Shown here in pieces: positions 10,197-64,000 of a stretch of 64,000 nt of DNA. The notes under the pieces are model-generated. The model worked only from the letters and a program-made list of their open reading frames with translations. It was not told the origin of the DNA and searched no databases. The stretch comes from an uncultured Chiayiivirga sp. (GTDB taxonomy: Bacteria > Pseudomonadota > Gammaproteobacteria > Xanthomonadales > Xanthomonadaceae). Every line of letters starts with the position of its first letter. Positions within the stretch are counted from its first letter, which is position 1. A program made the position numbers and the translations under genes. Location of the stretch: the NCBI GenBank assembly GCA_965653565.1, contig CBFHAI010000019.1, positions 6,140 to 70,139 on the forward strand, written 5' to 3'.

Positions 10197-10289
10197 AACC
10201 GACCGGCTCGACGTGCGCGGCGCGGGAAAACGCGCTGACAGCTTCACCGACGAAGGTTATAGTTCCATCGACGGGGCAAGAACTTACGC

Positions 10290-17286: not shown

Positions 17287-17363
17287 GGCTATGTAGCTCA
17301 GCCGGTTAGAGCACGGCACTCATAATGCCGGGGTCGGTGGTTCGAGCCCACCCATAGCCACCA
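17287..17363 (+). tRNA. tRNA-Met (CAT anticodon, elongator type; a lysidine-modified tRNA-Ile2 cannot be excluded)
   Basis: Cloverleaf read by eye: acceptor stem GGCTATG/CATAGCC, D arm GCTCAGCCGGTTAGAGC, anticodon stem CGGCA/TGCCG with loop CTCATAA, T arm GGTGGTTCGAGCCCACC, then an encoded ACCA. It is very similar to E. coli elongator tRNA-Met. Confidence 0.9.
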
Positions 17364-22231: not shown

Positions 22232-22800
22232 GATTCGAGCCGCTGCTTGAGCCAGGCGCGGGCGAAACGCAGGTCGCGATTCACGGTGGCGAGCGAAACT
22301 TCGAGCACTTGTGCGACTTCCTCCAGATCGAGCCCGACCAGATAATTGAGTTCGATCACGTCGGCCTTGCGCGGATCGCTTTCGCGCAGTTGCGTCAGCG
22401 CTTCGTACAGCGCCTCGGCGTCGCCGCCGTTTTCCGCCGCGACATCGTCGGCCGCGCCGAGCGTCACGCGCACCTGTCCGCCGCCGCGTTTGGCGCTCGA
22501 TTGGCGGCGGCCGAGATCGTGCAGGATGTTGCGCATCGCCACCGCGACGGTCTTGAAGAAATGCACGCGATCCTGCCAGGCGACATCGGCATCGAGCAGG
22601 TTGATCACCAGTTCGTTCGCCAGTTCCGTCGGCTGCAGCATCGCCGGCCCGCCGTCGGTGCGCAGGCGGCGCGCCGCCAGCTGCCGGATGCGATCGTAGA
22701 CCAGGGCCAGCACCGCCTCGGCGGCATGCACATCGCCGCCGCTCCACGCTCGCAGCAGCGTGGTCAGCTGCTCGCGCCCGTTCGCGTCATCGCCCGTCAT
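22228..22800 (-). CDS. ECF-type RNA polymerase sigma factor (TIGR02999-like, Ser/Thr-kinase-linked group)
   Basis: LLRAWSGGDVHAAEAVLALVYDRIRQLAARRL...LQPTELANEL and C-terminal region 4 (IELNYLVGLDLEEVAQVLEVSLATVNRDLRFARAWL). Confidence 0.8.
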   Translation of the reverse strand: MTGDDANGREQLTTLLRAWSGGDVHAAEAVLALVYDRIRQLAARRLRTDGGPAMLQPTELANELVINLLDADVAWQDRVHFFKTVAVAMRNILHDLGRRQSSAKRGGGQVRVTLGAADDVAAENGGDAEALYEALTQLRESDPRKADVIELNYLVGLDLEEVAQVLEVSLATVNRDLRFARAWLKQRLES

Positions 22801-22964
22801 CGTCCGTCTCCTAGGTCCCCCTGCCGATCATACTTGCCGCAGGGCAGGCCGAACGACGATCGGCTCGCAGCTCGCCCCCCAAATGTGGGTGGCCGACGCG
22901 TGCGGTTCCCAGCATCGGCCCGCAGCCGGCGGCAACCCGACCGGGGCGATGGGCCCGGCGCTCA

Positions 22965-23219
22965 TCAGGTCAGCCGCAGGAAGGCGCGCAGTCGCGGATC
23001 GATGCCTTCCCGGCCGTCGGTCCGTTCGAACAATTCGACCGCCAGTTCCAGCGCTTCGTCGTCCGATTCGCGTTGCGCGCGCGTCAACCGGTCGAGGCGG
23101 GCGCGCAGTTCGTCGAGCGACAGCGTCGCCGGCGCCAGGCGCAGGAACGGGATTGCCCGCGCGCCATTCATCGCGGGGAGCTTCGCCGCGTCGCGATCCC
23201 GTTGCCGGGATCGCACCAC
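22965..23219 (-). CDS. small acidic helical hypothetical protein (84 aa from GTG 23219, or 68 aa from ATG 23171)
   Basis: The ORF starts 7 nt after the upstream stop, with a GGAAG-like RBS. No recognisable family, TM segment or signal peptide. Confidence 0.35.
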   Translation of the reverse strand: MVRSRQRDRDAAKLPAMNGARAIPFLRLAPATLSLDELRARLDRLTRAQRESDDEALELAVELFERTDGREGIDPRLRAFLRLT

Positions 23220-23225
23220 TTCCGG

Positions 23226-49101: not shown

Positions 49102-50388
49102 TCAACCGACGATGTTCTGCGCGATGTCGCGTTCGCGATGCTCGAAGGCATCGACGAACTGGTCGAGCTCGCGATGGCTCATGCCGATGGAATGTCCGAC
49201 CTGACGCCAACGGCTGGTTGCGCGCTCAACCTCGGCCAGTATTCGAATGGCGGCGCCACGGTCGATGCGGAAATACGGCGCGACTGACATCAAGGCCCCG
49301 ATCGATGCCTCCGGCCCGGCGTCCTCCGAGATCCAGGTTTTCAGTTCGCGGGCGCGCTCGGGAAATGGATTGACGTCGAAGGCTGGCGCCAGCGTCCATT
49401 GCCCTCGTTGGCGGTGCAGGAATCCGTGGTTGTGGAGGTGATCATCTACGTTGGTGATGAGAATCGAGAAGGCGATGCGTCGCCACAATTCTTCGATGTC
49501 GGCTTGGGTCCGGGCGCCTACCTGCCGCAGGACCTCGACGATTTCCGTGTAGCTATGTTCACTTCCGTCCGCGGTGTCTACGCCGAGCATGGTTGCCGCG
49601 GAGACGTACATCAAACGACCGCCGTCGTCCGGCCGATCGAATCGACGGATCAGTGCGACCGGACTGCCATCGCTGTCCACCAACCTGGCCTCGGCGGCAT
49701 CGATGCCGGCGTCCCGCGCCAACAGGAGGGCCAGCACTTCTCCCTTGGTCACGGCGCGGTCGTCTTGCACGCTGGGGAATTTGCCGAGGGACAATCGGCC
49801 GTCCTCATCGATTACGGTACATTTCGGGCGCAAGCCTCCCAGGCTGGTACCGCGGCCGCGCAGGTAGGCCAGGTCGTCCGCGGTTTCGGTGTGCTGCTCC
49901 ACCGCCCGCGATGCGGAACGCAACATGCCCAACTCGATCAGTGGCGGCGCGGTGCGTCTTGCAGGATCCGACGCTCGTTGAAAACATCCGCTCTCATCGC
50001 GGAAGCGCAATGCGCCGACGCGACTGGTGTCGTCGACCGCCAAGAGCAGATCAACGTGATTCAATGCGTGCGCTTCGACGACCGCACCGGTCTGCCTGGC
50101 CTGTTGGCGTTGCTTCGCATGGTCGCGCAGGATGACCTTGCGTCCCCAGCCATCGGGCTCGGTGTCCGCGATCGCGCCATGGAATAGCGAACCATCGCGC
50201 CCTTGCTGGTGGAACTGCATGCCGGAAACCAGGGGCAGCCCCGGTTCGAGCGCGAAACGATCTTCGGCAGCCAACCAATCCGGGTGATATTCGAAACCCG
50301 CACTCTGACGTGCGCCCTGAACTTCGAATCGGAGCGTGCCGACCTGGCGCGTGGATTCGCCGAGAAAAACATCGAGCACCCGTTTCAT
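49102..50388 (-). CDS. hipA: type II toxin-antitoxin system HipA-family kinase toxin
   Basis: N-terminal coupling domain (VGTLRFEVQG...FEYHPDWL) and kinase core (SLGGLRPKC...NVDDHLHNHGFL). Confidence 0.85.
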   Translation of the reverse strand: MKRVLDVFLGESTRQVGTLRFEVQGARQSAGFEYHPDWLAAEDRFALEPGLPLVSGMQFHQQGRDGSLFHGAIADTEPDGWGRKVILRDHAKQRQQARQTGAVVEAHALNHVDLLLAVDDTSRVGALRFRDESGCFQRASDPARRTAPPLIELGMLRSASRAVEQHTETADDLAYLRGRGTSLGGLRPKCTVIDEDGRLSLGKFPSVQDDRAVTKGEVLALLLARDAGIDAAEARLVDSDGSPVALIRRFDRPDDGGRLMYVSAATMLGVDTADGSEHSYTEIVEVLRQVGARTQADIEELWRRIAFSILITNVDDHLHNHGFLHRQRGQWTLAPAFDVNPFPERARELKTWISEDAGPEASIGALMSVAPYFRIDRGAAIRILAEVERATSRWRQVGHSIGMSHRELDQFVDAFEHRERDIAQNIVG

Positions 50389-50714
50389 AGCGGCTTGGCT
50401 TTCTTCGGCCGTACCCGTTGCGGCAGGCGACTGCTGTCCATCAGCATTCCGGTTTCATCGCTGCGGCTGTCCGCGATCTCGGCCAGGCCGTTGGAGAATC
50501 CGAGCGTGAACAAGGTCATTGCGTACACCCCCATGGACACGCTGGGGTCGCCTTTCTCGACCTTCAGGTAGGTCGCCTTCGAGACGCCGACGCGTTCGAC
50601 CATCATTTCGACGGTCAGACTGCGTTTTCGGCGCGCGTCCCTGAGGTCCTTGCCAAGCTTGGCAAGGGCACGCCGGACCCGGGGAGGGAGGATGTCAGTG
50701 ACGGGAGATCGCAT
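50385..50714 (-). CDS. hipB: HipB-like XRE-family antitoxin
   Basis: HTH LKDLRDARRKRSLTVEMMVERVGVSKATYLKVEKGDPSVSMG. The stop overlaps the hipA start (ATGA). Confidence 0.8.
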   Translation of the reverse strand: MRSPVTDILPPRVRRALAKLGKDLRDARRKRSLTVEMMVERVGVSKATYLKVEKGDPSVSMGVYAMTLFTLGFSNGLAEIADSRSDETGMLMDSSRLPQRVRPKKAKPL

Positions 50715-50735
50715 AAATAAGGCCTCATAAAATAG

Positions 50736-50754
50736 CCCTTAAGCTTGTTAAGGG
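50736..50754. promoter_or_regulatory. palindrome upstream of hipB (candidate HipB operator)
   Basis: cccttaa-gcttg-ttaaggg: perfect 7-bp arms with a 5-nt spacer, 22 nt upstream of the hipB start, in an A+T-richer stretch. Confidence 0.35.
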
Positions 50755-50901
50755 ATAGATTATTAGTCCTTATCCGCCTGGGGCGGAGACATGTCAAGTC
50801 CGATCAAGCCCCGGTGGGCAGCAGGCATGTCGGCGCCGGGCCGCTGAACACCCGCAGTAGCGCGCCGTGCAATCCGCCTCCTGCCTTTCGGCGATGCACC
50901 T

Positions 50902-51108
50902 GCCGCCACCCGCTCGCCGAGCAGCGCACTCGACAGTCGGGAGTGCGGAACGAAAGGAAGACGAGCGCGGAACGTTCGGGGCTCGCATCGCGCGCGCCGC
51001 CATCTATCGGAACTACATCAGATCGCGAGTGAGCGAGTGAGGATCATCGCGCGCGTATCGATGGCATGGAGTCGATTCGAGGCAAGGGCCGGTAAGTTGC
51101 TCTGACCC
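50902..51108 (+). repeat. degraded copy of a roughly 0.28 kb element (copy 1), homologous to 61568-61850
   Basis: Hand alignment shows shared blocks CGCCACCCGCTCGCCGAG, GGAGTGCGGA, GAAAGGAAGACG, AACGTTCG, GGCTCGCATC, GAACT.CATCAGATCGCGA and the terminal GTAAGTTGCTCTGACCCC. Relative to copy 2, copy 1 lacks the ATG, about 76 nt, and frame continuity. Confidence 0.75.
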
Positions 51109-51259
51109 CAAGCGATCCGTCGCGCTTGTCCACCCTTTTGCCGGGGTTCGTATCAGGTAGCACTGGCATTCGCCATCGCGAGGTAACGCGTTCTCCCTAC
51201 CCGCCGTTCGCACTCCTGCATGGAAAACGATCGCCCATCACCGAATCGGAGGTCCGCGC

Positions 51260-52051
51260 ATGCGCCTGTTTATCGCCGCACTCGTCTTGTCACTCGCCAG
51301 CCCCGGCGCCTCGGCCCGGATGTACCTGCAGGGCAAGGATTCCTTTGCTCGCTGCAAACCGTGTTCCGAGATCGCCAACATCACCTTCGCCTACAACAAG
51401 GTTGGAGCTCTCAACTGCGCCTACGGCTGTACGACGTCTTGCAGCGCGATTCCGAAAGCGACGAATGACTCTTCCGAACGTGCCTCCGCTCAGGACGATC
51501 CCTTGCGCGGACTGGATCCCCTGTCGCTTGCGCCGAGCGCCGCATGCCCGGGGAAGGACGTCCCAAGGTTGCTGCTCAACTACTATGCATTCGATATTGA
51601 CGACGCGCAGATTCGTGCGATAGCAAAGGTATCTCCCCCGGCTGCATGGTTCGTGGCCGTGCTGCGCGACCAACCGGAAATCCCGCCGGTAGCCCTCGAG
51701 GAAGGCGAGACGATCGATGAATCCATCGTCACCGCCGAGAACATCGATCTGCTCCTCGAGGGCTTGGACGACGACGTCAGTCATGCCGCAGTGTCCCCGC
51801 CCCTCGAAGGCGACGTCTCGTTCGTGACCAACACGCGCGTGCATCGCCTACCCAACGGCCGTCGCGTGTTCGTCGTGGAATCTCGCGTCCTGGACCACCC
51901 GACCGGCGCGACGCTGGCGACGCCGTATCCGCGTTTCGCGGTCGAGATCGAGCAAATCGCGAACCAGACCCGCAAGGTGGGCGGCGCGGAAGGCAGCGAT
52001 GCCACGCTGTGGCGTGTGGTGTCGTGGGGCAGTCCCGAGCGCTACTTCTGA
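51260..52051 (+). CDS. secreted hypothetical protein (263 aa, Cys-rich N-terminal part)
   Basis: GGAGG RBS. Signal peptide LFIAALVLSLASPGASA. No family recognised. Convergent with the adhesin gene. Confidence 0.5.
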   Translation: MRLFIAALVLSLASPGASARMYLQGKDSFARCKPCSEIANITFAYNKVGALNCAYGCTTSCSAIPKATNDSSERASAQDDPLRGLDPLSLAPSAACPGKDVPRLLLNYYAFDIDDAQIRAIAKVSPPAAWFVAVLRDQPEIPPVALEEGETIDESIVTAENIDLLLEGLDDDVSHAAVSPPLEGDVSFVTNTRVHRLPNGRRVFVVESRVLDHPTGATLATPYPRFAVEIEQIANQTRKVGGAEGSDATLWRVVSWGSPERYF

Positions 52052-52139
52052 TTGAAGGCGCTGCTTCTCGCCTTCTGTGCCACTGCCCCGCGGCCTTTCG
52101 CCGTTGCAGGCGAAAGGCCGCGGGGTCCATTGCAGGCAG

Positions 52140-55100
52140 TCAGCCGCGGCGCAGTGCGCGGCCCGCCAGCAGCAGCATCAAGGCCGCCAGCATGACGAGC
52201 AGTTGATTGCTGCTCGCCGGGATCACGGCCGGCGCGCTCGGGCCCACGCCGGACCCGACCACGGTGCTCGCCGACGACGACGTGTCGCCCGGAGTCGGGT
52301 CCTGGCTGTCCGATACCACCGAGGCGATGTTGATGATCGTCGTGGGCCCGCTATACCCAGGCGGGACGAGGAACGTCGACTGCACCGTGCGCGTCTGGTT
52401 GACCGCCAGATCGCCGAGCGCACACGGGAAGGCCGTCGTGCAATCGCCGGCATTCGACACGAACTGCAAGCCCGCGGGTGTCGGATCGGTGAGCACCGTG
52501 TTCACCGCGGTGTGCGGGCCGAGGTTGCGCACGACGATGGTGAAGGTGACCGGCGCACCGACGGTTCCGTTCGCGGGGCCGCTCTTCTGGATCGTGAGAT
52601 CGGCGATCACCCCGCCCAGCGGCGTGCCGGCGTCGTCGCTGTCGGTGACGGGGTTGCCGCCGGGCGCGTTCGCCCTCGCGGCGGCGACGTTGGTCAGCAC
52701 GCCGCCCGCGCCGGCTTCGGCCAGCGTGATCGTGTGGCTGTAGGGATTGCAGGTCGCGGTCTGATTCGGCGCCAGCGTCGTCGGTGCGCATGTCAGTGCC
52801 ACGGCTGTCGCACCGGCCAGGCTGTCGCTCACCGCGAGCGCACTCAGCGTCACGTTGCCGACGTTGCGCACGGTCACCGCGTAGGCGATGGTTTCGTCGA
52901 CATCGCCGGTGCCGTTGCCGTTGCCGTCGTTCAACGTCGCCAGCTTGACCACTTCCAGCGCCGGCTGCGGCGCGATCGTCGTGATCTCTTCGTCGGTGCC
53001 GGTGACCGGCGGCGTGCCGATCGGGCCCGGTGGCGTGCCGGTCGCCGTCGCGGCATTGGTGACGTTGCCGGCATCGACGTTGGCCTGCGTCACCGTGTAG
53101 TTGCCGGTGCAGGTGATCGACGCGCCCGCCGCGAGCGTGGCCGGCACCGCCGGTGCGCAGCTCAGGCCCGCGATCAGCGAGTCGGTGACGCCGACGCTGC
53201 CAAGCGTGACGTTGCCGGTATTGGTGGCGACGATCTGGTAGCTGAGCACCGTTCCGGCAACGATCGGCGCGGTCGCATCGGTGCGCGTCTTCACCACCGT
53301 GATCGCGGGGCCGGGCTGCGGTCCGGTCGCGACGGCTTCGTCGCTATCCTGCACCGGGCCGCCGCTCGGCGGTGTGGCCGTGACCGTCGCGGTGTTGGTG
53401 ACCGTCCCGCTGTCGACGTCGCCAGCGGTGACGGCATAGGTTCCCGTGCACACGAGATTCGCGCCCGGAGCCAGCGTGGCCGGCTGCGCCGGCGCGCAGG
53501 TCAGCGCAGCGAGCAAGGGATCGGCGATGCTCACGTTCGAGAGCGTCACGTTGCCCGTGTTGGTAGCGGTCAGCTGGTAGTCGATGCTGTCGCCCACCGC
53601 AACATAGGCGGCGCCGGCGGTGATTTCCTTCAGCAACTCGATGGCCGGTGCCGGCGGAGAGATCGGCGTGCTCGTGGTGTCGGACTCTTCCAGCGGCGGC
53701 AACGTCGGGTTCATCGGATCCGGATCGGTCGGATCCGGCGCCGTCGCCGTGGCGGTGTTGATGAGGGCCACGCCGGCGTCGACGTCGGACTGCGTCACGG
53801 TGTAGCTGCCGGTGCAGGTGAGCGACGCGCCGATCGCCAGGTTCGCCGGCTGCGCCGGCGTGCAGGCGAGCGTCGGCAAGCGGGGATCGGCGATCGCGAC
53901 GCCGCTCAGTGCGATGTTGCCGGTGTTCGTGGCGGTGAGCGCGTAGTCGATGGTTTCGTTGGCGTCGGCGGCGGCGTTGCCGTTGCCGTCGTTGAGCGTC
54001 GCGCCCTTGACCAGTGCCAGTTGCGGCACGACCGGCACCGGCGTCTCCACGCAGCCGCTGCTCGGACACGACGGCACGATTCCGCCGGTCGGGTAGGCCA
54101 GATTCACCACGCGCGTCGCAGCGGCCGGCAAGGGATCGACCACTTGCACCGTCACCATGAGCACCAGGCTGCCGGCCGCCGGCACCGTCAGTCCGGTCCA
54201 CGTGACCACGCCCGCCGCATGCGCGCCGCCGGTGTCCGCGCTGACGAAGATGACGTTCGCGTCCAGTGCGTCGGTGACCGAGTAGCCGGTCGCGGCGACG
54301 CCGCCGCTGTTGCTCAGCGTGATCGAATAAGTCAGCGTTTCGCCGGGCGAGGCGATGCCGTTCGCGGGCGCATTGCCTTCGCCGGACAGCGTCTTCGTCA
54401 GGCGCACGTTGGACGCGAGCGGATGGGTCGTGCTGCAGTCGCTGCAGCTCGGATCCGGATCGCCGCCGTCGTTGCTCGGATCGATCGCGACGTTGTTGCC
54501 GACCGAGCCGCTGGCCGAGGCGAGAACGTCGGCGCTGTAGGAGACCGAATAGGTTCCGACCGCGCGGCCCGCCGGCAAGGTGAAGCTGCGCACGTTGCCG
54601 GCACCGCCGAGCACGAAGCCATCGCCGTTGGCCACGAGCTGGAAGTTGCCGAGTTGCGCGTCGAGCGTATCGGTGAGCACCAGCGCGGCCGTGGTCGGGG
54701 CGCCGGTGACGGCGACCGACAGCGTGTAGGTGATGGTGTCGCCTGCGGCGACCTGCGCACCATCGGCGGGATTGGCCGACTTGTTCACCGACACTTGCGG
54801 CGCGGCGATCGTGGTGACGACGGGCGGCGTGTCGCAGTCGGTGGCCGCCACGCAATCGGGATCGCCGCCGCCGGTCACGCCGGCGGTGTTGCTCACGCTC
54901 GCACCGGCGGCGACGGTCGGCGTCACGTTGATGGTGATCGCGACCGACTCGCCGATCTGCAGATCGCCCTGCGCGATCGAGCACGTGACAACCTGCGCCG
55001 CGATCGTGCAACCGGGCCCGGCACTGTTGATCGTGAGTCCAGCCGGGACGGTGTCGCTGACCGTCGCGTTTGCCGTCGCGTCGGCGGTACCCTCGTTGGT

Positions 55101-57629
55101 GACCGTCACGGTGTAGTCGTACGCGACGCCGACCACAGCAGTGGCCGGACCGGTCTTGGCGATCGTCAGATCGGGTGCGTTGACCGGATGCGTCGTGCTG
55201 CAGCTCGGGCTGCAACTCGGGGGATTCTCACCGCCGCCGCCCGAAGGCAGCACGCTGTTGCTGACGCTGACCGTTGCCGTGGCCGCCACCGTCGCCGAGT
55301 AGGTCACCGAATACGTGCCCGTCGCGGTGCCGGCAGGCAGCGTGCAGGTCAGCGTGCCGCTGCAGTTGAAGGCGGGGCTGGCGCTGACCACGGTGCCGAA
55401 AGTCAGCGAAGCGCTCAGCGTGTCCTGCAGCGTGAACGTGGCCGACAACGGTGCGTTCGCGATCGCGACGCTCACGGTGTATTCGATGCTGTCGCCGATA
55501 TCGACCGCGGTGCCGCTGGCCGGGTTGGCGCTCTTCGCCACCGTGATGATCGGCCGCGCAACGACCGTCTGCGCGCTGGCGCTGTTCGGCGCGACGTCGT
55601 TGTTCTCGTTGGCTGCGGCAATGCTGGTGGTGATCGGAATCGGTCCCGGATTCGCCACGGCCACCACATAGTTGAAGTTGAAGCTCAGCCACTGCTCCGG
55701 CGCGAGCGTGGTCGGCATGCCGGTGAAGGTGATCGTGCAGACCGGCGCCGGGTTGTAGTTGGCGGTCACCCCGGGCGGCAGCAAAGTGAAGTTCACCGAG
55801 GCAGGACAGGTCGCCGGCACGCCCGGGTTGCCGAGCGTGACCGCGTAGGTGACACCGGTGGCCGCCGTATCGCCGGCATTGCCGAAGACGAAGCTGCCGT
55901 AGGCCGTCTCGCCGGCCAGCACGCTGGGCGTGACGCTGACCTGCGTGCCGACGTCCACGCCGACGGTCGGAGGGACGATCACGATCGGTTCTTCGAGCAC
56001 CGGAGAGCGTTCCAGCGCCCACAGGTCCAGGCCCTTGGCCGTGCCGAAATATTCGGTCACGCGGTCGCGGCAGTCGCTGTTGTCGTCGGCCGAGCCGGTC
56101 CACGAACGGAAGTAGTTGCCGGAACCGGCGAGGTTGTCGTCGGCCGAATCCACGCCGATCAGTGAGTGGGTCGGCACCGGTTGCGTCACCAGGCTGGCGG
56201 CGCCGCACAGGTGCCCGTCGAGCGTGCCGATGGTCGTGTTGTTCGCGGCGCGGTAGCCGCGGTCGTCGTAGTAGACCGTCGTGGTGTCGAGCGCGAAGCC
56301 ATTGAGCTTGGTCAACGTCGGCCCGCCTTCGAGGTTGGCTTCGACGTCGATCATCGGGAAGTGGATTTCGCCGTTGCGCCCGACGATGCGGAAATCGTAG
56401 CTGCCGGCCGGGAACGGGTTGCCGCTGTTGTCCAGCCCGTCCCACAGTACCGTGTGATTGCCGCTGAGCGCGGTGCCGGTGAGCACACGATTGAGCGCGT
56501 TGGCCGGATCGTAGTCGACGCCGTCGCGGCTGACGACGATCTCGTAGGTCAGCGTATTGAGCGTGTTGAAGGTGAACACGCCGCCGGCCGCTTCGGTCGA
56601 GGTGTTGCCGCCGACGTTGCCGACGAAACTCGGGTTGCTCAACTGCGGCTGCGCGGGCACCAGCGGGATGGCGAGCGCCGCGAGCACGCGCGCCACTTCC
56701 GCCGCGTTCGGGCCGGACGGCGAAACATCGCTGAAGAAGATCGGGTATTGCGGGCGCTGCGCCGTGATGCCGGCGGTGAAGGACGGCCCGAGGGTGACGG
56801 CCGCATTGCTGCCGCGAAGATCGCGATAGAGCGGTCCGCCGTCGGAGTCGAGGAATCCGGCGGCGTTGGCGTAGAACGCGGCGCGATTCGGATCGAGTCC
56901 GCGGAAGGTCTGCTTGTAGCGGTAGCCGTCGCTCGAGACGTAGTACAGATCGTTGTAGAGCCGGCGGCCGTTGGAGTTCAGATACACGGTCCACGCATAG
57001 GTGAACACGCGGCCGTCGATGTCGGCCAGCGAGTCGGCGCTGGCGCGCACGGTGATGTCCCAGGCCGCGACCAGTTCGCCGCCGAGGATCGGCGGCGTGG
57101 CTATCGACGCCGAGTTGACCTGGGCGCCGCTGGTGGCGCCGCTGAATCGCACGCCATAGGTGCCGGTGGTGGGTGCGACGTACCAGCACGGCGTGAAGCC
57201 GTCGGTCACCGTGGCGGTGCCGTCGGCGCTGTTGGGGCCGGCCAGTTCCTGCGCGCGGCTGGCGATCGTGCCGCCGGCCTGCGAGCTGCAGGTGAAGTCG
57301 GCCGTGCCCGGAATCGTCTCGTCGCCGGGGGTGCCGAACGACTGCGGGTTGTACACGAAGATGTCGCCGCCGTTGCTGCGGTTGCGCGAGCCCAGCAGGA
57401 TGTACTCGCCGGCGCGCGCATAGACGTAGAGAAACTGGCGGCCGCGCGCCACGTTCGCGAAGTTCGAGCTGTTGCTGACGTCCATCACGCCGCGGTTGCC
57501 GAGTGCAGCGGCCGGATGCAGCGTCCGCGTGCCTTCGGCACTCGCGGGCTGCGGACAGGCCACCGCCAGCAGGAGGATCGACGCGGCGAAGCGCATCGAC
57601 CGGCGGATGGGACGCGACAGGGATTTCAT
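52140..57629 (-). CDS. giant surface adhesin-like protein: unique N-domain, many DUF11/TIGR01451-type repeats, IPTL-CTERM-like sorting tail
   Basis: The ATG at 57629 has GGAG 7 nt upstream and gives MKSLSRPIRRSMRFAASILLLAVACPQPASA. Reiterated modules follow (TATNTGNV.LS.V...D.....L.C.P..PA.LA.GA...CTG.Y.VT..DVD.G.V.N.A). The C-terminus is VIPASSNQLLVMLAALMLLLAGRALRRG. Confidence 0.8.
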   Translation of the reverse strand: MKSLSRPIRRSMRFAASILLLAVACPQPASAEGTRTLHPAAALGNRGVMDVSNSSNFANVARGRQFLYVYARAGEYILLGSRNRSNGGDIFVYNPQSFGTPGDETIPGTADFTCSSQAGGTIASRAQELAGPNSADGTATVTDGFTPCWYVAPTTGTYGVRFSGATSGAQVNSASIATPPILGGELVAAWDITVRASADSLADIDGRVFTYAWTVYLNSNGRRLYNDLYYVSSDGYRYKQTFRGLDPNRAAFYANAAGFLDSDGGPLYRDLRGSNAAVTLGPSFTAGITAQRPQYPIFFSDVSPSGPNAAEVARVLAALAIPLVPAQPQLSNPSFVGNVGGNTSTEAAGGVFTFNTLNTLTYEIVVSRDGVDYDPANALNRVLTGTALSGNHTVLWDGLDNSGNPFPAGSYDFRIVGRNGEIHFPMIDVEANLEGGPTLTKLNGFALDTTTVYYDDRGYRAANNTTIGTLDGHLCGAASLVTQPVPTHSLIGVDSADDNLAGSGNYFRSWTGSADDNSDCRDRVTEYFGTAKGLDLWALERSPVLEEPIVIVPPTVGVDVGTQVSVTPSVLAGETAYGSFVFGNAGDTAATGVTYAVTLGNPGVPATCPASVNFTLLPPGVTANYNPAPVCTITFTGMPTTLAPEQWLSFNFNYVVAVANPGPIPITTSIAAANENNDVAPNSASAQTVVARPIITVAKSANPASGTAVDIGDSIEYTVSVAIANAPLSATFTLQDTLSASLTFGTVVSASPAFNCSGTLTCTLPAGTATGTYSVTYSATVAATATVSVSNSVLPSGGGGENPPSCSPSCSTTHPVNAPDLTIAKTGPATAVVGVAYDYTVTVTNEGTADATANATVSDTVPAGLTINSAGPGCTIAAQVVTCSIAQGDLQIGESVAITINVTPTVAAGASVSNTAGVTGGGDPDCVAATDCDTPPVVTTIAAPQVSVNKSANPADGAQVAAGDTITYTLSVAVTGAPTTAALVLTDTLDAQLGNFQLVANGDGFVLGGAGNVRSFTLPAGRAVGTYSVSYSADVLASASGSVGNNVAIDPSNDGGDPDPSCSDCSTTHPLASNVRLTKTLSGEGNAPANGIASPGETLTYSITLSNSGGVAATGYSVTDALDANVIFVSADTGGAHAAGVVTWTGLTVPAAGSLVLMVTVQVVDPLPAAATRVVNLAYPTGGIVPSCPSSGCVETPVPVVPQLALVKGATLNDGNGNAAADANETIDYALTATNTGNIALSGVAIADPRLPTLACTPAQPANLAIGASLTCTGSYTVTQSDVDAGVALINTATATAPDPTDPDPMNPTLPPLEESDTTSTPISPPAPAIELLKEITAGAAYVAVGDSIDYQLTATNTGNVTLSNVSIADPLLAALTCAPAQPATLAPGANLVCTGTYAVTAGDVDSGTVTNTATVTATPPSGGPVQDSDEAVATGPQPGPAITVVKTRTDATAPIVAGTVLSYQIVATNTGNVTLGSVGVTDSLIAGLSCAPAVPATLAAGASITCTGNYTVTQANVDAGNVTNAATATGTPPGPIGTPPVTGTDEEITTIAPQPALEVVKLATLNDGNGNGTGDVDETIAYAVTVRNVGNVTLSALAVSDSLAGATAVALTCAPTTLAPNQTATCNPYSHTITLAEAGAGGVLTNVAAARANAPGGNPVTDSDDAGTPLGGVIADLTIQKSGPANGTVGAPVTFTIVVRNLGPHTAVNTVLTDPTPAGLQFVSNAGDCTTAFPCALGDLAVNQTRTVQSTFLVPPGYSGPTTIINIASVVSDSQDPTPGDTSSSASTVVGSGVGPSAPAVIPASSNQLLVMLAALMLLLAGRALRRG

Positions 57630-57920
57630 GGGCAGCTCCAGCACTCGATCGACGAAAAGCGCCGCGCCACACGCGATCGAGCGATCATGAGCAGGCGGAG
57701 CATCGAAACAGGCCGGTCCGTGCGCCGCTGGCGGGCACGAAGGAAGCTCCCGGAGCGACGGACTGGACTGGCATTCGCGTGCTAGGCGAGATCCGGAGTA
57801 GCCGGATGCCAGCGGTCTCGTGCGATATTTGCAAACAAAGGTGACACCTAGACGGGGTATCGCGCCCGCCCTGCACTATCCTTCCTGTCGAGCCGTTCTT
57901 CCTGCCCGGATGCAATCCAA

Positions 57921-58526
57921 GTGATTGATATTGCAAACGCGTCGCTGACGGTCTTGCTGAATCACGCCGCCGGCGGCGACCTGGCCGCCCGCCACCGGGT
58001 GTTCGAGCGCATCTATGCGGAGCTGCGCACCGTCGCGCGCCGATTGATGCTCGGCGAAGGTTCGGGCCACACCCTGGGGGCGACCGCGCTGGTGCATGAG
58101 TTGTATCTGCGGCTGTTCGCCGGCGAGTCCGCCGGCTGGGCCGACCGCGAGCAGTTTCTGCGCTATGCGCGCGCCGCGATGGCGCATCTGCTGGTCGATC
58201 ACGCGCGCCGCCGCAACACTCAGCGTCGCGGCGGGGGGCTGATGGCCACCGACGAGCAGCCCTTGGCCGAGCCCGCCGACACCGACGCCTTGATCGATCT
58301 CGAAGAGTCCTTGCAGACCCTGGCCCGGGTCAATCCGCGCGCCGCGCGCGTGCTCGAGTTGCGCTGCCTGGCCGGGCTGGAAGTGGAGCAGACCGCGTCG
58401 CTGCTCGGAGTCAGTGAGCGCACCGTCTGCCGCGACTGGGACCTGGCGCGCGGGCTGCTGTCGCAGATGCTCGCGTCGACCGAAGGCGCGCCGATCGCGC
58501 TGCGCGATGACGATCCCGGGCACTGA
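57921..58526 (+). CDS. ECF-type sigma factor (paralog of 22228-22800)
   Basis: GTG start. LLNHAAGGDLAARHRVFERIYAELRTVARRLM...HTLGATALVHELYLRL and region 4 (LELRCLAGLEVEQTASLLGVSERTVCRDWDLARGLL). Confidence 0.8.
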   Translation: MIDIANASLTVLLNHAAGGDLAARHRVFERIYAELRTVARRLMLGEGSGHTLGATALVHELYLRLFAGESAGWADREQFLRYARAAMAHLLVDHARRRNTQRRGGGLMATDEQPLAEPADTDALIDLEESLQTLARVNPRAARVLELRCLAGLEVEQTASLLGVSERTVCRDWDLARGLLSQMLASTEGAPIALRDDDPGH

Positions 58527-61152
58527 TCCGCACACCCGCTGGCGGCGATTGAGCGAGGCCCTCGACGGGCTGCTCGATGCCGACCCCGCCGCGCGCGATC
58601 GCCTGCTCGCCGACCTCACGCCCTCGCTGCGAGCCAGCGCGATCGCCGCACTCGGCGCGATCGGGCAGCACGACGCCTTCGACGAGATCGCGGCCGAAGC
58701 GGCCGCGCGGCGGCCCGAGCCGCTGCCCGAATCGCTGCTGGGCGAGCGCATCGGCGATTTCGAACTGACCGCCCTGCTCGGCGTCGGCGGCATGTCCTGG
58801 GTGTATCTGGCGCAGCGCGAACAAGGCGGCGCGCGCCAGCAGGTCGCGCTCAAACGCCTGCGTCCGGATCTGGCGTCGGCGCAGCTGCGCGAGCGCTTCG
58901 CCATCGAGCAGCGCATCGTCGGGCGCATCGCGCATCCGGGCATCGCGCGACTGATCGCCGCCGGGGTCGACGACGCCGGCGTGCCGTGGCTGGCGACCGA
59001 GCTGGTGCAAGGCAAGCCGCTGCTGCACTGGTGCGACGAACGCCGGCTGCCGGTGCCGCGGCGATTGGGCTTGTTCCTGCGCGTGTGCGAGGCGGTGAGC
59101 GCGGCCCATCGCCACCTGATCGTGCACCGCGACCTCAAGCCGGCGAACGTGCTGGTCGATGACGACGGCGAGCCCAAACTGCTCGACTTCGGAATTTCGC
59201 GCCTGCTCGAAGGCGATACGGCCGCTGTCGACAGCACCCGCGCCGAGTGGCGCATGCTCACGCCCGAATATGCGGCGCCCGAGCAACTGGCCGGCGCGGC
59301 GCCGAACATCGCCATGGATGTCTATGCACTGGGCGTAATGCTCTACGAGTTGTTGTCGGGTGTGCGGCCGCCGAGCGCCGTGTATCGCCGCGCCGATGAA
59401 GCGCCGCTCGTGCCGCCCTCGGCCGCGCACGTGCCGGCGGCGGCACATCTGCGCGCCGCGTCGCCAAAAGCGCTGCGGCGCCGTCTGCAGGGCGACCTGG
59501 ATGCCATCGTGCTGCGCGCGCTGGAGTTCGACCCGGAGCGCCGCTATGCGCGCGTCGATCTGTTGGCCGACGATCTGCGGGCGGTGCTGGAGAAGCGTCC
59601 GATATCGATGCGCCGCCGGAACTGGTTGCACACGGCCGCGCGCTTCCTGCAACGCAATTGGCTCGTCAGTTCGTTGGCGGCGGTCGCCCTGCTGGGTTCT
59701 CTGGGCGGCGTGGCGGGTGTGGTGATCGAATCGCAACGGCGCGAGCGGGCCCTGGAGCGCGCCGAAGCGGTGGAACGGTTCCTGGTCGGATTGTTCGGCT
59801 CGGCCTCGCTCTCCACGCGCGATGCCGCGCAGCGGCCGGTGTCGGCGCTGTTGCAGGACGGCGCCGACGAGGCGGCAGGTCTCGCACCGTCGCGCCCCGC
59901 GCTGGCGGCGAAATTGCTCCTGACGATCGCCACGGTGCAGAACCAGCTCGATCAATTCGACGCGGCGATCGCCAACTACGAGGCGTCCGCGGCCGCGGCG
60001 CGCGCCGCGAACGATCTGCTCACCGTCGCCGAAGCGCAGCTCGGCCACGCCAACGTGCGGCTGCGCACCGGCCTGAACGCCGGACGCATCGACGCCCTGC
60101 TCGAAGCAGCCCTGCCCGTGCTTCGCGAGCAGGCCCCCGAAAGTCTGCAACTGGTCAACGGCCTGACCATGCTTGCCCTGCGGCAGCAGGCACTGAAGCG
60201 GCTGAACGAGGCCGAGGCCAGCTTTCTCGAAGCCATCGCCCTGGTGGACCGCGTGGCGCCGAACGATGTCCTGGCGTTCCAGGCGCGTTCGGACCTGGGC
60301 GTGATGTACGAACTCGATGGGCGAGTCGACGAGGCCGTGGCTATCGAACGCGAAGCCTGGGCCGGAGCGCGCGAAATCCTGGGCCCGGCGCACGTCACGA
60401 GTCTGCGCATCGGGTTCAATCTTGGCAAAGCGCTCGGCAGGCAAGGCGCGCTGGCCGAAGCGAACGAGCTGATGCGGCAAACCGCCGGGCCGCTGTTCGA
60501 GCTGCTGCCGCCCGATCACACCGACCAGGTGGCGATCCGCGCCGAGTACGCCCGCGTGGCCGCGCAGTTCGATCGACTCGACGAGGCCGAGACCTTGCTG
60601 GTCGACGCTACGCGGATTGCCGGGCAGCGCGAGGATATCGACGGCACCCTGGTGGCCGTGATGCGCTCGCATCTGGGCGCGCTGCGGGCGCGGCAAGGCC
60701 GCCTGGACGCGGCGTTCACGGAAATCGATGCGGCTTATCGCTGGCTGGTCGAACACGGCGCCCAGGATTTCTTCCAGACCTGCTGGGCGCAGGGCACCAC
60801 CGCGCGCCTGCTTTTCGATCTGGGCCGCGATGCCGAAGCACGCGAACGGCTCGCCGCGCCATCCAATTGCGGCGCCGCCCTCGACGAGGCGCGCGCGCGC
60901 GCCGCCTGGGCGGCCGGCGACCACGACCAAGCCCACACCCGCTATGCCGCGTTGTTGACGCCGCGCGATGGCACGCCGCAGGCGCAAATCGCCGTGCTTC
61001 CCGTGCGTCTGCGCTATGCGGTGCTGCTCGGCGAAAGCGGCGACCGCACTCGGGCCCGCGCGCAGTTGCAGCACATCACCGAAACGTTGGCGGCCATGGA
61101 TATCACGGCCAATCCCGAGCTGCGTGAAGCGCGGCGATTGCTTGCGGAGTGA
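58507..61152 (+). CDS. transmembrane Ser/Thr protein kinase with TPR repeats (paralog of 19496-22231)
   Basis: The ATG at 58507 lies inside the last 20 nt of the sigma gene. Kinase motifs LGVGGMSWVYLA, VALK, HRDLKPANVLV, DFGISR, APEQ. TM segment WLVSSLAAVALLGSLGGVAGVVI. The C-terminal half is TPR-like. Confidence 0.85.
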   Translation: MTIPGTDPHTRWRRLSEALDGLLDADPAARDRLLADLTPSLRASAIAALGAIGQHDAFDEIAAEAAARRPEPLPESLLGERIGDFELTALLGVGGMSWVYLAQREQGGARQQVALKRLRPDLASAQLRERFAIEQRIVGRIAHPGIARLIAAGVDDAGVPWLATELVQGKPLLHWCDERRLPVPRRLGLFLRVCEAVSAAHRHLIVHRDLKPANVLVDDDGEPKLLDFGISRLLEGDTAAVDSTRAEWRMLTPEYAAPEQLAGAAPNIAMDVYALGVMLYELLSGVRPPSAVYRRADEAPLVPPSAAHVPAAAHLRAASPKALRRRLQGDLDAIVLRALEFDPERRYARVDLLADDLRAVLEKRPISMRRRNWLHTAARFLQRNWLVSSLAAVALLGSLGGVAGVVIESQRRERALERAEAVERFLVGLFGSASLSTRDAAQRPVSALLQDGADEAAGLAPSRPALAAKLLLTIATVQNQLDQFDAAIANYEASAAAARAANDLLTVAEAQLGHANVRLRTGLNAGRIDALLEAALPVLREQAPESLQLVNGLTMLALRQQALKRLNEAEASFLEAIALVDRVAPNDVLAFQARSDLGVMYELDGRVDEAVAIEREAWAGAREILGPAHVTSLRIGFNLGKALGRQGALAEANELMRQTAGPLFELLPPDHTDQVAIRAEYARVAAQFDRLDEAETLLVDATRIAGQREDIDGTLVAVMRSHLGALRARQGRLDAAFTEIDAAYRWLVEHGAQDFFQTCWAQGTTARLLFDLGRDAEARERLAAPSNCGAALDEARARAAWAAGDHDQAHTRYAALLTPRDGTPQAQIAVLPVRLRYAVLLGESGDRTRARAQLQHITETLAAMDITANPELREARRLLAE

Positions 61153-61377
61153 CGGAATCCGGCGCAAGGGCCGGGCTCCGGAGTGCGTTAACCGCGCCTC
61201 CTACCTTTCGTCGGCGACGCCTGACAGCGCACAATTGTCCTGCCTTCATCGTGTGCGCCAGGACGAGTTCGAGATTTCGCGGGGTTTTTCGCATTCTCTG
61301 TATTCGATGTGTTTGCGACGAAGCTGATTCGTTGCATTTATCTTGATGCTGTGAGTGCGTCGCCGTAGGATCGATCG

Positions 61378-61462
61378 CGCTGCGGCCAAATCCGCAGCCG
61401 GGTATGACAGCCCGCAAACACAAGGCGCATCAGCGCCCACGTCCGATGTCGGCGCTTTTTTT
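61378..61462 (+). ncRNA. candidate small RNA or leader transcript (promoter-like element, two hairpins, U-tract)
   Basis: TTGATG (61343-61348), a 17-nt spacer, TAGGAT (61366-61371). Hairpin ctgcgg-ccaaat-ccgcag. Then agcgcc...ggcgct followed by seven T residues (61456-61462). No credible ORF inside. Confidence 0.25.
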
Positions 61463-61567
61463 GCGTCCGCCATCGGCGTGGGCGCAAACCGGCTTCTATG
61501 GCGGCGGTGCGCGGGAGCTTTCGGGCTCGCCGGTTCCTTGTGTACCGGTCTGTCACCGCGCACCGTT

Positions 61568-61850
61568 CGCCACCCGCTCGCCGAGTGGCGCACTTCGACA
61601 AGCCAGGAGTGCGGAGATGAAAGGAAGACGTGCGGCAAAACGTTCGCGGCTCGCATCCCTTGCGAAAGCAAGGTCGATGCTCTGGGCGCTTCAACAACTC
61701 ACCGCGAAGAACGTGACCACCGGCAGGGCAGGTCGCAGCTATCTATTCGAACTGCATCAGATCGCGACTCAGGGCGTGAATATCGTCGAACGTGTTCTCA
61801 ATGATATTGAGTCGGCTCGCGACGAGGGCAAGTAAGTTGCTCTGACCCCC
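61568..61850 (+). repeat. intact copy of the roughly 0.28 kb element (copy 2), containing a 72-aa ORF
   Basis: See copy 1. Homology starts about 50 nt upstream of the ORF ATG and continues 15 nt beyond its TAA, to GTAAGTTGCTCTGACCCC. Confidence 0.75.
61617..61835 (+). CDS. hypothetical basic/helical 72-aa protein
   Basis: GGAG lies 8 nt upstream of the ATG. Product MKGRRAAKRSRLASLAKARSMLWALQQLTAKNV...LFELHQIATQGVNIVERVLNDIESARDEGK. Only the last 72 codons of the 143-aa track ORF look real. Confidence 0.4.
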   Translation: MKGRRAAKRSRLASLAKARSMLWALQQLTAKNVTTGRAGRSYLFELHQIATQGVNIVERVLNDIESARDEGK

Positions 61851-61871
61851 GCCGTTCGACCCCCGCCGTTC
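61844..61871. repeat. perfect 14-bp tandem duplication (gacccccgccgttc x2) at the right boundary of repeat copy 2
   Basis: Positions 61844-61857 and 61858-61871 are identical. The first unit begins inside the conserved CTGACCCC end of the element. Confidence 0.9.
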
Positions 61872-62076
61872 GGCTATCAAACGGCTTACAGCAAAGCACA
61901 TCGACGACGAGAGTTGTGGTTGCAGCTTTCTGTTCGAGTTGCACCAACTTGCGAGCAGGGACTTGAGGCAACTGACCGTTTGATTGATTGCATCGAAAGC
62001 GGTGAAGCGGCGAGCGATGCCTCTGGCGCCATACTCGCCCGTGCCGAGTCAGGAAGGAACCCAGTCAATCGCCAAT

Positions 62077-64000
62077 TTAGTAGATCTGTTTCCGACCTCC
62101 GCGAGACGGCAACTGACGAATTTCCAACCCGAGCAACTGGCAATACTTTCGCTTTGTCGCGGTGTCGGGCGGCGAGAGGTACATCCTGCGCTTGACGAGT
62201 TCCCTAACGACGATCCTGGGGAGAAGGTCGGCCTCTCTTGTTTCGCGCAAGAACTTCTCAATGGGAATTCCAGGGAAATCCTTTTCCGACAAGATGCCTG
62301 CTCCGAGCCAGAACAGCATATCTGTACTCTCGGGCCTTACCCTTCGCATGTCTGCAACAAGCGGCCGAAGCTCTTGCGCGCCAATTGCGGTCGCGACTCG
62401 CGATACGCACGCCAGGGTCATCTGAGAAACAACCCATCCCAATACGCGGTTAGCTGTCTGTCGCGCCACCTCTGGATCTAATCGAAATGAAGCCTCGAGT
62501 GCCCCGGACATCTGGTGTGCGATCTGTGGCCCATGTTCTTCCACTAGTTGGAAGAACAATCGCATCAAGCGGCGAGCGAGACTCGAACAGCTACTGGCCA
62601 CCGCCATCTTACGCTCGCCGTCCAATCCTCCTGCACGACTCCGCAGCACTTGGCCCAACACCTGAATAGTCTTAAACGCCGAATTGATACGGCCAGGATC
62701 GTCCTCAAGCCCTTCCATTCCGCGATGACTAGGCGCGAGGCTTTGCCTCTCCGCTTTGTCGGCCTGCTCGGCAAAATGCTCACTCACCTCAATAGGGCGG
62801 CCGTCTATCAACACGCTGCGGTCTGCGACGGTGAGGAAACGCGTGAGCAGTCCTGTCCCTTCCGAAACTTCCGCCTCTCCTATTTCGGGAAACAGCGCAT
62901 TGGCGTGACGACACAATAAATCGACGACCTCGGTTTCGTGGCCAAGATGGGCAACAAATGTGAGTACATTCGCGCTTCGCTCGGTATGAATGTACTCAAT
63001 GAGTCGCGGAATCAACTCGTCCTGCTCGCGCCTGTTACGAGCCGCGCTAATATCACGAGCCAAGAAATAGTAGAAATAATACGGGTAGTAGAAGCGAGTC
63101 ACACCGTCGTGCACCGCTAAAATTTGCGCCGACACAAGCTTGGAGACCAACGTAGTGCGATCTACCTCGATTCTCTTTTCTTTCAAGAAGCTCTCGTAGA
63201 ACTCATCGAACTCTTCTTGCGTAACCGCTTCCGACGGTTCTTCCGAGACACGCCTCGCGAATGCGGATAGAACTGCAACCACAATCTCAATCTTGACGCC
63301 CTTGACGCGCTCGTCAATTGTTCTAGTAATCAGCTCTTCGAACAAGTAGCCGTGACTACCGTTTGCAACGATGGATTTCGCGTCCGATGCGAGCTCAAGC
63401 TGCTGCAGCACCAAGAGCACGTAGACCGGGTATCGAGGGATAATATTCCTAGCGAAAAGCTCATCGACGAACTTCTTGAGCTGTCGACACTGCGATTCGA
63501 TCTCTACCTCCGAGAATTCTCCGTCATCTCCGAGTGAGACCCAACGGCGAATTAGGTCTGAGCGATGCTTGTGGCTAGTTGGAGGAAGCTCGAAGAGCGC
63601 GGCATCTCGCCACACATTCGACGCTCCAGTGACAAGGTCATCCACCACTCCTGAGATGGCGGAGTACTGACCGGAGAAAGCAACAATTCGCCCATGGTGA
63701 GCGGAAAGGCGGTCTACTACTCTCTTTAGCCCCTCATGCCCACCGGGCACGCTGTGTACGTTGTCTAGAAACGCAATCTTTCGTGTCGGAGTGGCTTGCT
63801 TGATATCTTCCGCACAATCGCTCGGATACTGCTCGGTCATCGCAGAGTTGATCCACGAGGTTATTTCTCCTCGGAAGCTCTTCGACAGCCTGCTGCAATC
63901 TAGATAAAGCGGGACATCTCCTCGGCGCTGACTTTCACGATAAAGCAGTTTCGCAAGAGAGGTCTTTCCGGCCTGCTCGACGCCAGCCACCAACGACAGC
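62077..64000 (-). CDS. P-loop NTPase, STAND-like (N-terminus beyond the right window edge)
   Basis: Walker A GVEQAGKTSL sits at the very edge and the frame stays open to position 64000. Walker B-like KIAFLDNVH. A long helical C-terminal region follows. G+C is visibly lower than in neighbouring genes. Confidence 0.6.
   Translation of the reverse strand, partial: LSLVAGVEQAGKTSLAKLLYRESQRRGDVPLYLDCSRLSKSFRGEITSWINSAMTEQYPSDCAEDIKQATPTRKIAFLDNVHSVPGGHEGLKRVVDRLSAHHGRIVAFSGQYSAISGVVDDLVTGASNVWRDAALFELPPTSHKHRSDLIRRWVSLGDDGEFSEVEIESQCRQLKKFVDELFARNIIPRYPVYVLLVLQQLELASDAKSIVANGSHGYLFEELITRTIDERVKGVKIEIVVAVLSAFARRVSEEPSEAVTQEEFDEFYESFLKEKRIEVDRTTLVSKLVSAQILAVHDGVTRFYYPYYFYYFLARDISAARNRREQDELIPRLIEYIHTERSANVLTFVAHLGHETEVVDLLCRHANALFPEIGEAEVSEGTGLLTRFLTVADRSVLIDGRPIEVSEHFAEQADKAERQSLAPSHRGMEGLEDDPGRINSAFKTIQVLGQVLRSRAGGLDGERKMAVASSCSSLARRLMRLFFQLVEEHGPQIAHQMSGALEASFRLDPEVARQTANRVLGWVVSQMTLACVSRVATAIGAQELRPLVADMRRVRPESTDMLFWLGAGILSEKDFPGIPIEKFLRETREADLLPRIVVRELVKRRMYLSPPDTATKRKYCQLLGLEIRQLPSRGGRKQIY

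Follow-up and report, generated by a model that had tools for sequence, protein, structure and literature searches.

Gene content and repeated units at the locus

The 64,000-nucleotide (nt) stretch analyzed here, referred to below as the window, comes from an uncultured Chiayiivirga sp. (contig CBFHAI010000019.1). Toward its right end it carries an IsrK-like RNA, a C4 antisense RNA gene and an intact open reading frame (ORF) of 72 amino acids (aa), and the distal part of this cassette recurs on the far side of a block of three genes encoding an adhesin, an extracytoplasmic function (ECF) sigma factor and a Ser/Thr kinase (Table 1). The first-pass annotation had described two diverged copies in direct orientation, at about three-quarters identity, with the ORF intact only in the second, and alignment bears this out. 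When the copy-2 region was compared with the window by blastn, 50896-50989 matched 61560-61657 (83.7% identity over 98 nt, E 6e-21) and 50995-51109 matched 61734-61849 (75.9% over 116 nt, E 1e-17); all matches other than copy 1 had E >= 0.05. Overall identity is ~74%, and the longest exact runs are 18 nt: CGCCACCCGCTCGCCGAG, at 50904 and 61568, marks the left end of the repeated unit, and GTAAGTTGCTCTGACCCC, which ends copy 1 at 51092-51109, is found again at the end of copy 2.

Table 1. Features of the window, in order of position (GC, fraction of G+C)
Feature	Position	Strand	Description
hipBA-type toxin-antitoxin pair	49102..50714	-	Pfam HipA_C, Couple_hipA, HTH_31; NCBIfam couple_hipB; abuts truncated 5′ end of copy 1
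Copy 1	50896..51109	+	Pseudogene: last ~18 nt of C4, leader, broken ORF, 18-mer
263-aa ORF	51260..52051	+	Signal-peptide-like N-terminus; between copy 1 and adhesin
DUF11/DUF7507 adhesin	52140-57644	-	Pfam
ECF sigma factor	57921-58526	+	Pfam
Ser/Thr kinase with TPR	58507-61152	+	Pfam
Possible sigma-70-type promoter	61343..61371	+	TTGATG, 17 nt, TAGGAT; TTGnnn-17-TAGnAT kept in L033 and L034
IsrK-like RNA	61379..61462	+	Rfam RF01394, 52.9 bits (gathering score 50)
C4 antisense RNA gene	61494..61577	+	Rfam RF01695, 67.2 bits (gathering score 45), model positions 1-87/87
Start of copy 2	61560..61616	+	Last 18 nt of C4 and leader; 84% identical to copy 1
72-aa ORF	61617..61835	+	Intact; ribosome-binding site AGGAG at 61605-61609; position of icd or orf45
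Identical 18-mer	61832..61849	+	GTAAGTTGCTCTGACCCC; present stop TAA 61833-61835, ancestral last codons and ancestral stop TGA 61843-61845
14-nt perfect tandem duplication	61844..61871	+	GACCCCCGCCGTTC x2; read directly from sequence
Copy 3	61873..62026	+	Frame-shifted piece of a distant family member, from codon ~24 to the end (last letters CTCTGG)
nSTAND4 NTPase cargo, 3′ part	62077..64000	-	Pfam; PADLOC candidate PDC-S60; GC 0.54; continues past window edge

Copy 1 has, as first described, lost its start codon (ATG to ACG, together with a 1-nt deletion), the 76 nt matching 61658-61733 and the reading frame. Because its substitutions relative to copy 2 are spread evenly over the three codon positions (5/4/6), it is a pseudogene, truncated within C4: the homology ends within the 3′ strand of the C4 outer stem, beside the hipBA promoter region. 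The sequence before 50891 shows no significant resemblance to that preceding copy 2 (local alignment, shuffle test p 0.15-0.32), and a 500-nt Rfam scan upstream of copy 1 gave no C4 or IsrK gene even at E 10. From its alignment, the repeated unit comprises ~20 nt at the 3′ end of C4, the leader, in which the ribosome-binding site lies, and the ORF.

Two features had been overlooked: copy 2 starts inside the C4 gene, and a third, more distant copy follows it directly. Copy 3, which reads AIKRLTAKHIDDESCGCSFLFELHQLASR..., was recovered by tblastn (E 9e-6) and by the family profile (E 8.9e-9). It has ~54% nt identity to each of the other copies, has a cargo-like GC of 0.53 and ends with the terminal motif of the family just before the nSTAND gene. 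It is absent in two related metagenome contigs (L001 and L003; relatives are designated by such numbers), and by its composition and distribution it belongs to the variable segment described below. The tandem duplication of GACCCCCGCCGTTC has its first letters within the 18-mer, precisely where the variable DNA joins. A short string, CCCGCCGTTCG, recurs at 51200-51210, 90 nt past copy 1 (local alignment p about 0.04).

An IsrK-C4 RNA cassette upstream of the ORF

The IsrK-like RNA consists of two hairpins bearing the upstream C4 target sites, followed by an intrinsic terminator with a T-run. The first site, a1 (UGACAG, 61405-61410), is complementary to the single-stranded CUGUCA (a′) of C4; the second, b1 (ACACAAGG, 61418-61425), is complementary to the loop of C4 hairpin 2 (b′, CCUUGUGU); and the gap of 7 nt between a1 and b1 matches the annotation of phage P1. 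The Rfam family c4-a1b1 (RF03163) was also hit, at 61366-61418 on the + strand, at 37.1 bits, under its gathering score of 46.7. C4 itself has an outer stem and two hairpins, an architecture that the minimum-energy fold reproduces. The possible promoter comes from the alignment only, as a consensus promoter scan did not call it.

The order IsrK-like RNA, C4, ORF is found in the window, L001, L033, L034-37, L038 and L039, and the two contigs that start close to or inside C4 (L041 and L003) show C4 and the ORF only. Every family member on a readable contig has C4 directly upstream, with the IsrK-like hairpins wherever the contig reaches that far. C4 scores in the relatives are 46-70 bits. Membership in IsrK is borderline for the clade, with scores of 42.9-48.3 bits in the relatives, below the gathering score that the window itself passes. 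A 19-nt piece of C4, searched against the collections, gave 0 viral matches and 12 metagenome matches, all chance matches inside unrelated genes.

Support for the upstream pairing comes from covariation. We judged pairing by counts of exact complements across lineages, replacing duplex energies, as the duplex-energy test of C4 pairing was uninformative in this GC-rich sequence (shuffles did equally well or better). The loop of C4 hairpin 2 and b1 covary in six lineages, with b1 reading ACACAAGG, GTAAGCGG, TCTCAGG or GTTTGGG; cognate loops and b1 sites are complementary over 7-8 nt at the same offset, and non-cognate ones over 4-6 nt, except for L033 and L038, which share one loop. Since loop and target change in a compensatory manner, the comparison argues that the RNA system is functional. 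The leader between C4 and the ORF contains an a2-like GACAAG (61598-61603), then the Shine-Dalgarno (SD) sequence AGGAG; the leader sequence is conserved in L001, L003 and L033. AAGGAA follows just past the AUG.

The 72-aa ORF and its former 3′ end

An exhaustive profile search and a second indexed search grouped the relatives of the ORF into a family of 13 clusters, 56-83 aa long, with the motif EARSLFW..QLT..GRSYLFELHQ(I/L)A; an initial word-index search had returned three proteins only. No relatives were found in 185,579 reference genomes, JGI metagenome contigs or IMG/VR, and the ORF had no match in Pfam, NCBIfam, PHROGs or PADLOC, or by tblastn of phage genomes. AlphaFold predicts a basic two-helix hairpin (predicted local distance difference test score, pLDDT, 83), for which fold libraries returned only generic two-helix hairpins and no E-value <= 0.001. 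Differences between orthologues fall mostly at third codon positions (10/6/22, 5/3/18 and 7/3/15 for first, second and third positions), so the ORF is under coding constraint.

The first-pass annotation had taken conservation beyond the coding part as a sign of an element boundary or recombination site. On the upstream side the conserved DNA is the 3′ end of C4 and the leader. On the downstream side an identical 18-mer does run past the stop codon, with divergent flanks after it, as described; because the ancestral stop TGA lies within this 18-mer, the post-stop conservation is mostly former coding sequence rather than a terminus. The ORFs of L001, L033, L034 and L038 terminate at a TGA inside TCTGA, whereas copies 1 and 2 of the window have a spacer of 28 nt in place of the 30 nt of the others, a frame shift that brings in the TAA stop four codons early. 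(The L003 ORF has a premature TGA.) The (C)TCTGAC motif is better conserved than the remainder of the 3′ third of the ORF. Variable DNA begins just past the ancestral stop, with weak residual similarity for ~30 nt further in some lineages, and the 18-mer was not found a second time on the other side of the cargo. We also considered that the ends might be conserved because of an ECF-type promoter or a terminator; neither is needed given the C4 tail and the ancestral stop.

A comparable pair occurs on the Cupriavidus malaysiensis plasmid NZ_CP017756 (L025, 6003-6449), where a C4 RNA (72.9 bits) precedes a 103-aa ORF. Downstream there are target-like sites, TTGGCAG and CACAAGGAG, the latter overlapping the SD sequence. 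The 103-aa ORF and that of the window share a basic N-terminus and a GRSYL motif. There may be a wider class of C4-linked small ORFs.

Comparison with phage immunity loci

The immI region of phage P1 comprises, in order, a promoter, a1, b1, c4, a2, b2, icd (73 codons) and ant (PMC8198154). The window has in common with the P1/P7 region a promoter (a possible one in the window), two target sites 7 nt apart, a C4 with its hairpin-2 loop and single-stranded CUGUCA(A), and an ORF of ~72-73 codons starting 40-50 nt after C4. It differs in that the ORF has no detectable similarity to Icd, that ant, the C1 operator context and a surrounding phage genome are all missing, and that the neighbor after the ORF is a converging gene of a defense system. 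It also takes the IsrK form, with an intrinsic terminator separating C4 from the targets. In this respect it resembles the isrK-orf45-anrP locus of Salmonella Gifsy-1, in which partial read-through into a small ORF is combined with regulation by RNA pairing (PMC4825925): both have an IsrK-type RNA with its own terminator, and the window passes the gathering score of RF01394. Unlike Gifsy-1, the window has a separate C4 RNA between IsrK and the ORF, has neither anrP nor antQ, and places the cassette in a chromosomal setting rather than a prophage.

A variable defense-gene slot between the ORF and the TSCPD gene

In the window/L002, L001, L003, L033, L038, L039 and L041 the ORF converges on a TSCPD-domain gene, which is followed by a class II ribonucleotide reductase gene in L001 and L033, the two long contigs. 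(At 99.96% identity to the window, L002 continues for another 1.5 kb, as far as the stop codon of TSCPD, and contains the complete nSTAND gene.) Six lineages have the order ORF (+), cargo (-), TSCPD (-), each with a different cargo: in the window/L002, copy 3 plus a 1031-aa Metallophos-nSTAND4 protein (PADLOC PDC-S60); in L001, a type II-A retron, consisting of a reverse transcriptase (RT) and a nucleoside deoxyribosyltransferase (NDT); in L003, an AriA/Old/GajA-like ATPase; in L033, two small unknown genes; in L038, a DUF4062 protein; and in L041, a 238-aa protein plus an MNT-like PDC-S09 protein. The slot of L039 is empty, with 88 nt between the facing stop codons. Homology between the genomes restarts exactly at the TSCPD stop codon. 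PADLOC matches were obtained for four cargoes (PDC-S60, the retron II-A RT and NDT, the AriA/Old/GajA-like ATPase and PDC-S09), and the window cargo has a GC of 0.54 versus 0.67 for the window.

Judged from these alignments, the slot qualifies as a core defense hotspot, with constant flanking markers, a variable and defense-enriched content, and an empty state, in a small sample of eight metagenomic lineages. The hotspot suggested in the first-pass annotation therefore stands at the copy-2 end, where relatives have the same cassette and TSCPD flanks around a different cargo or none, and the attachment (att)-like site that went with it is not supported. Core defense hotspots with conserved genes at their borders, RNA genes among them, form a recognized class (PMC10250203). 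Like cDHS1 and cDHS2 of Pseudomonas aeruginosa, the slot has variable defense content between conserved markers, a lower GC and an RNA gene on one flank; in contrast, the flanking RNA is here a phage-type C4 cassette and there a tRNA or the transfer-messenger RNA (tmRNA), the cargoes here are single small systems of 1-3.3 kb with no mobile-element genes seen besides one insertion sequence (IS), and our eight metagenomic lineages compare with thousands of genomes.

That IS transposase lies after the ORF of L037 (+ strand, DDE_Tnp_1, 593-1975), where TSCPD was not detected. L034-L036 are three independent assemblies of one lineage whose contigs break ~50 nt past the ORF, and L037 is a fourth assembly of it. 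The breaks and the IS of L034-L037 are consistent with strain-level heterogeneity at the junction. The retron RT and deoxyribosyltransferase of L001 occupy 10279-12346 of that contig, and a structured intergenic stretch of ~190 nt beside its TSCPD gene could be the site of the msr/msd RNA.

A probable chromosomal immI-type cassette as the border of the slot

We think it probable that a leader cassette of the phage P1/P7 immI type is now chromosomal, that its intact copy, copy 2, borders a slot for defense genes, and that copies 1 and 3 are scars. The repeated unit would then be the distal half of this cassette, which would run from the promoter through the IsrK-like hairpins with a1/b1 and their terminator to C4, the ribosome-binding site and the 72-aa ORF; copy 2 would be the intact and functional version. 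By analogy with P1, read-through transcripts would yield C4 RNA, whose CUGUCA and hairpin-2 loop would base-pair with the decoys upstream and, with less certainty, with sites near the ORF's ribosome-binding site, and this pairing would keep the small basic protein repressed. The cassette would serve as a fixed landmark facing the TSCPD gene in a clade of Xanthomonadales/Lysobacteraceae-like bacteria, and the gap between the facing stop codons would be a defense-gene hotspot, its content most likely swapped via recombination in the conserved flanks.

Copies 1 and 3 could be explained as scars of such exchanges, the likeliest route being one-sided homologous (homology-facilitated illegitimate) recombination, in which the incoming foreign DNA carried part of the donor's own cassette and the surplus copy then decayed. 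The nSTAND gene would have come from a distant donor with the same type of locus, bringing along part of the donor's ORF as copy 3, with a join that was homologous on the TSCPD side and illegitimate just past the resident ORF. Copy 1, which has the same derived 28-nt spacer as copy 2, may be another such scar, or else a segment copied locally; in either case it would later have been truncated at the hipBA side.

Several observations weigh against this reconstruction. Comparison of the ORF family with P1 Icd by hhalign gave a probability of 0.3%, and no antirepressor gene follows the ORF, the next gene being the converging defense gene. Pairing of C4 with the ORF leader (a2/b2) has no covariation support, with cognate matches no better than non-cognate ones; leaders are very short in L039 and L041, and L039 has no a2/b2-type sites. 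C4 repression of the ORF is thus proposed here by analogy with P1. The relatives all come from metagenome contigs, their clade is poorly sampled, and none was found in the 185,579 reference genomes. The recombination route for copies 1 and 3 is suggested by their anatomy, with the origin of copy 1 as its weakest part, and L001 may hold an equivalent of copy 1 beyond the 1.1 kb that we could read to the left of its adhesin gene.

Alternative explanations

A bolder but rather unlikely proposal is that the cassette is an active part of the defense locus, acting through a C4-repressed toxic or regulatory protein or through antisense regulation, and is also a homology handle for swaps. In one version, the RNA-repressed small protein would be set free by an invading phage or satellite that titrates or out-competes C4, making the cassette an immI-based infection sensor or an addiction module; in another, read-through antisense transcription would regulate the converging defense gene. 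Service as a handle for swapping defense cassettes would explain why copies 1 and 3 travel with cargo.

It is also unlikely that the copies are inert debris, with copy 2 as all that is left of a decayed prophage or P4-like satellite once located beside TSCPD and copies 1 and 3 as further debris. Phages like P1 and satellites like P4 typically carry C4 RNAs (int, C4 and primase are found, for example, in Pseudomonas phage vB_Pae_U10), the Cupriavidus plasmid carries C4 plus a small ORF, and no other phage gene is left at the window locus. P4-like satellites and further integrative elements with C4/CI-type RNAs (such as vB_Pae_U10, PP003922) do resemble the window in that an operon opening with small ORFs has an RNA of the C4 family in its leader; they differ in that integrase, AlpA, primase and capsid-related genes are all missing from the window locus, and in that the window-type cassette stays when the neighboring cargo changes or is absent. 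Against debris, the cassette is kept at the same chromosomal site across lineages whose ORF proteins are only about 40-55% identical, it persists in L039 despite the empty slot, the substitutions in the ORF are biased to third codon positions, and compensatory changes tie the C4 loop to its b1 target. Debris would not display such signs of selection, and we therefore disfavor this explanation.

Plain paralogy, in which the 72-aa gene was duplicated locally, one copy died and the placement of the two around the adhesin block is a coincidence unrelated to exchange at the hotspot, strikes us as improbable. Copies 1 and 2 do share the derived, frame-shifted 28-nt spacer and the TAA stop, both absent in L003 (30 nt) and the other lineages, which suggests that they come from the same lineage. 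However, their homology covers the non-coding leader and the C4 tail and ends inside C4, as expected if a DNA segment rather than a gene had been copied; the distance between copies 1 and 2 (74% identity) is about equal to that between copy 2 and its L033 orthologue (74.5%); and copy 3 shows that fragments of the cassette travel with cargo.

The adhesin block between copies 1 and 2

The remaining alternative concerns the DNA between the copies, which the first-pass annotation had read as a mobilizable or deletable module of ~10.5 kb. L001 is collinear with the window over 52048-61811 at 92% identity, from the adhesin terminator region through the ORF, so that its homology starts 940 nt to the right of copy 1 and not at 51110. 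Left of the adhesin, the readable 1.1 kb of L001 contains no 263-aa ORF, copy 1 or hipBA. That stretch (L001 1-1091) encodes an IetA-like AAA ATPase (PADLOC E 3e-33). Because L001 has this ATPase where the window has the 263-aa ORF, copy 1 and hipBA, both sides of the adhesin-ECF-kinase block look like variable defense or toxin-antitoxin islets. The cassette lies beside TSCPD without the block in L033, L038, L039 and L041, with other genes to its left in L033-36 and L039; it also occurs without the block in L034-37, where the right flank is beyond view. Conversely, the adhesin-ECF-kinase trio occurs without the C4 cassette in distant Lysobacteraceae-type contigs (L026-L031). From this distribution the block (10.7 kb) appears to be a conserved chromosomal block, neither cargo nor a unit bounded by the copies. 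In Pfam scans covering the main ORFs, but not all small ones, from 41 to 64 kb, no integrase, resolvase or transposase was found.

That copies 1 and 2 are att-like or recombination sites flanking such an adhesin/ECF/kinase module is therefore highly improbable: they are direct repeats with an identical 18-mer at each right end and unrelated DNA after it, and the flanking GC is slightly below that of the block, yet they are 74% identical overall, the truncated and dead copy 1 and the complete upstream RNA cassette of copy 2 are the reverse of what integration into a gene 3′ end would leave, no cargo has the 18-mer on its other side, scans of proteins between 48 and 64 kb found no integrase or transposase, L001 shares the block from 52048 with IetA at its left, and cassette and block occur separately.

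Other features of the window

The 263-aa ORF had no family match in Pfam, NCBIfam, PHROGs or PADLOC. Used as an anchor, the kinase found only distant kinases in reference genomes, and its closest named homologues, at 54-58% identity, are in metagenome-assembled genomes of Lysobacteraceae and Xanthomonadales. The kinase genes of L001 and L002 also match the window at 21241-21658 and 23429-23495 (72-79% nt identity), which points to a paralogous Ser/Thr kinase locus (region 19496-23500) ~37 kb upstream. The adhesin gene (52600-55600) has internal repeats that have diverged and recur every 339-366 nt (families D1-D8), corresponding to the DUF7507/DUF11 Ig-like domains.

Just upstream of the hipB start lies an AT-rich near-palindrome (CCCTTAAGCTTGTTAAGGG plus flanks, 50713-50774), a probable operator for HipB; its weak Rfam matches, to models of the plastid psbA 3′ untranslated region, are spurious. 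Farther away, a tRNA-Met (17287-17363) is followed by ~2 kb of lower-GC DNA (0.58-0.61) that reaches 19400 and has only ORFs of <= 233 aa; the segment 17287-19400 may be a decayed island.

Significance

A repeat-flanked mobile adhesin module would have been an ordinary finding, and that description is largely wrong. The feature instead varies on known things in a new way: a C4/IsrK cassette, fixed in the chromosome and associated with a new family of small ORFs, at the edge of a defense hotspot. Selection appears to have maintained a P1-type C4/IsrK cassette in a bacterial chromosome where no phage is present, and this cassette carries a previously unrecognized family of small proteins at the icd position. 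The cassette would form one fixed border of the defense slot, the other being TSCPD, followed by the ribonucleotide reductase gene. That an immunity RNA cassette should form a border raises the question of whether such cassettes sense or regulate anything in defense, and for this poorly sampled clade the cassette offers a practical marker for finding new defense genes.

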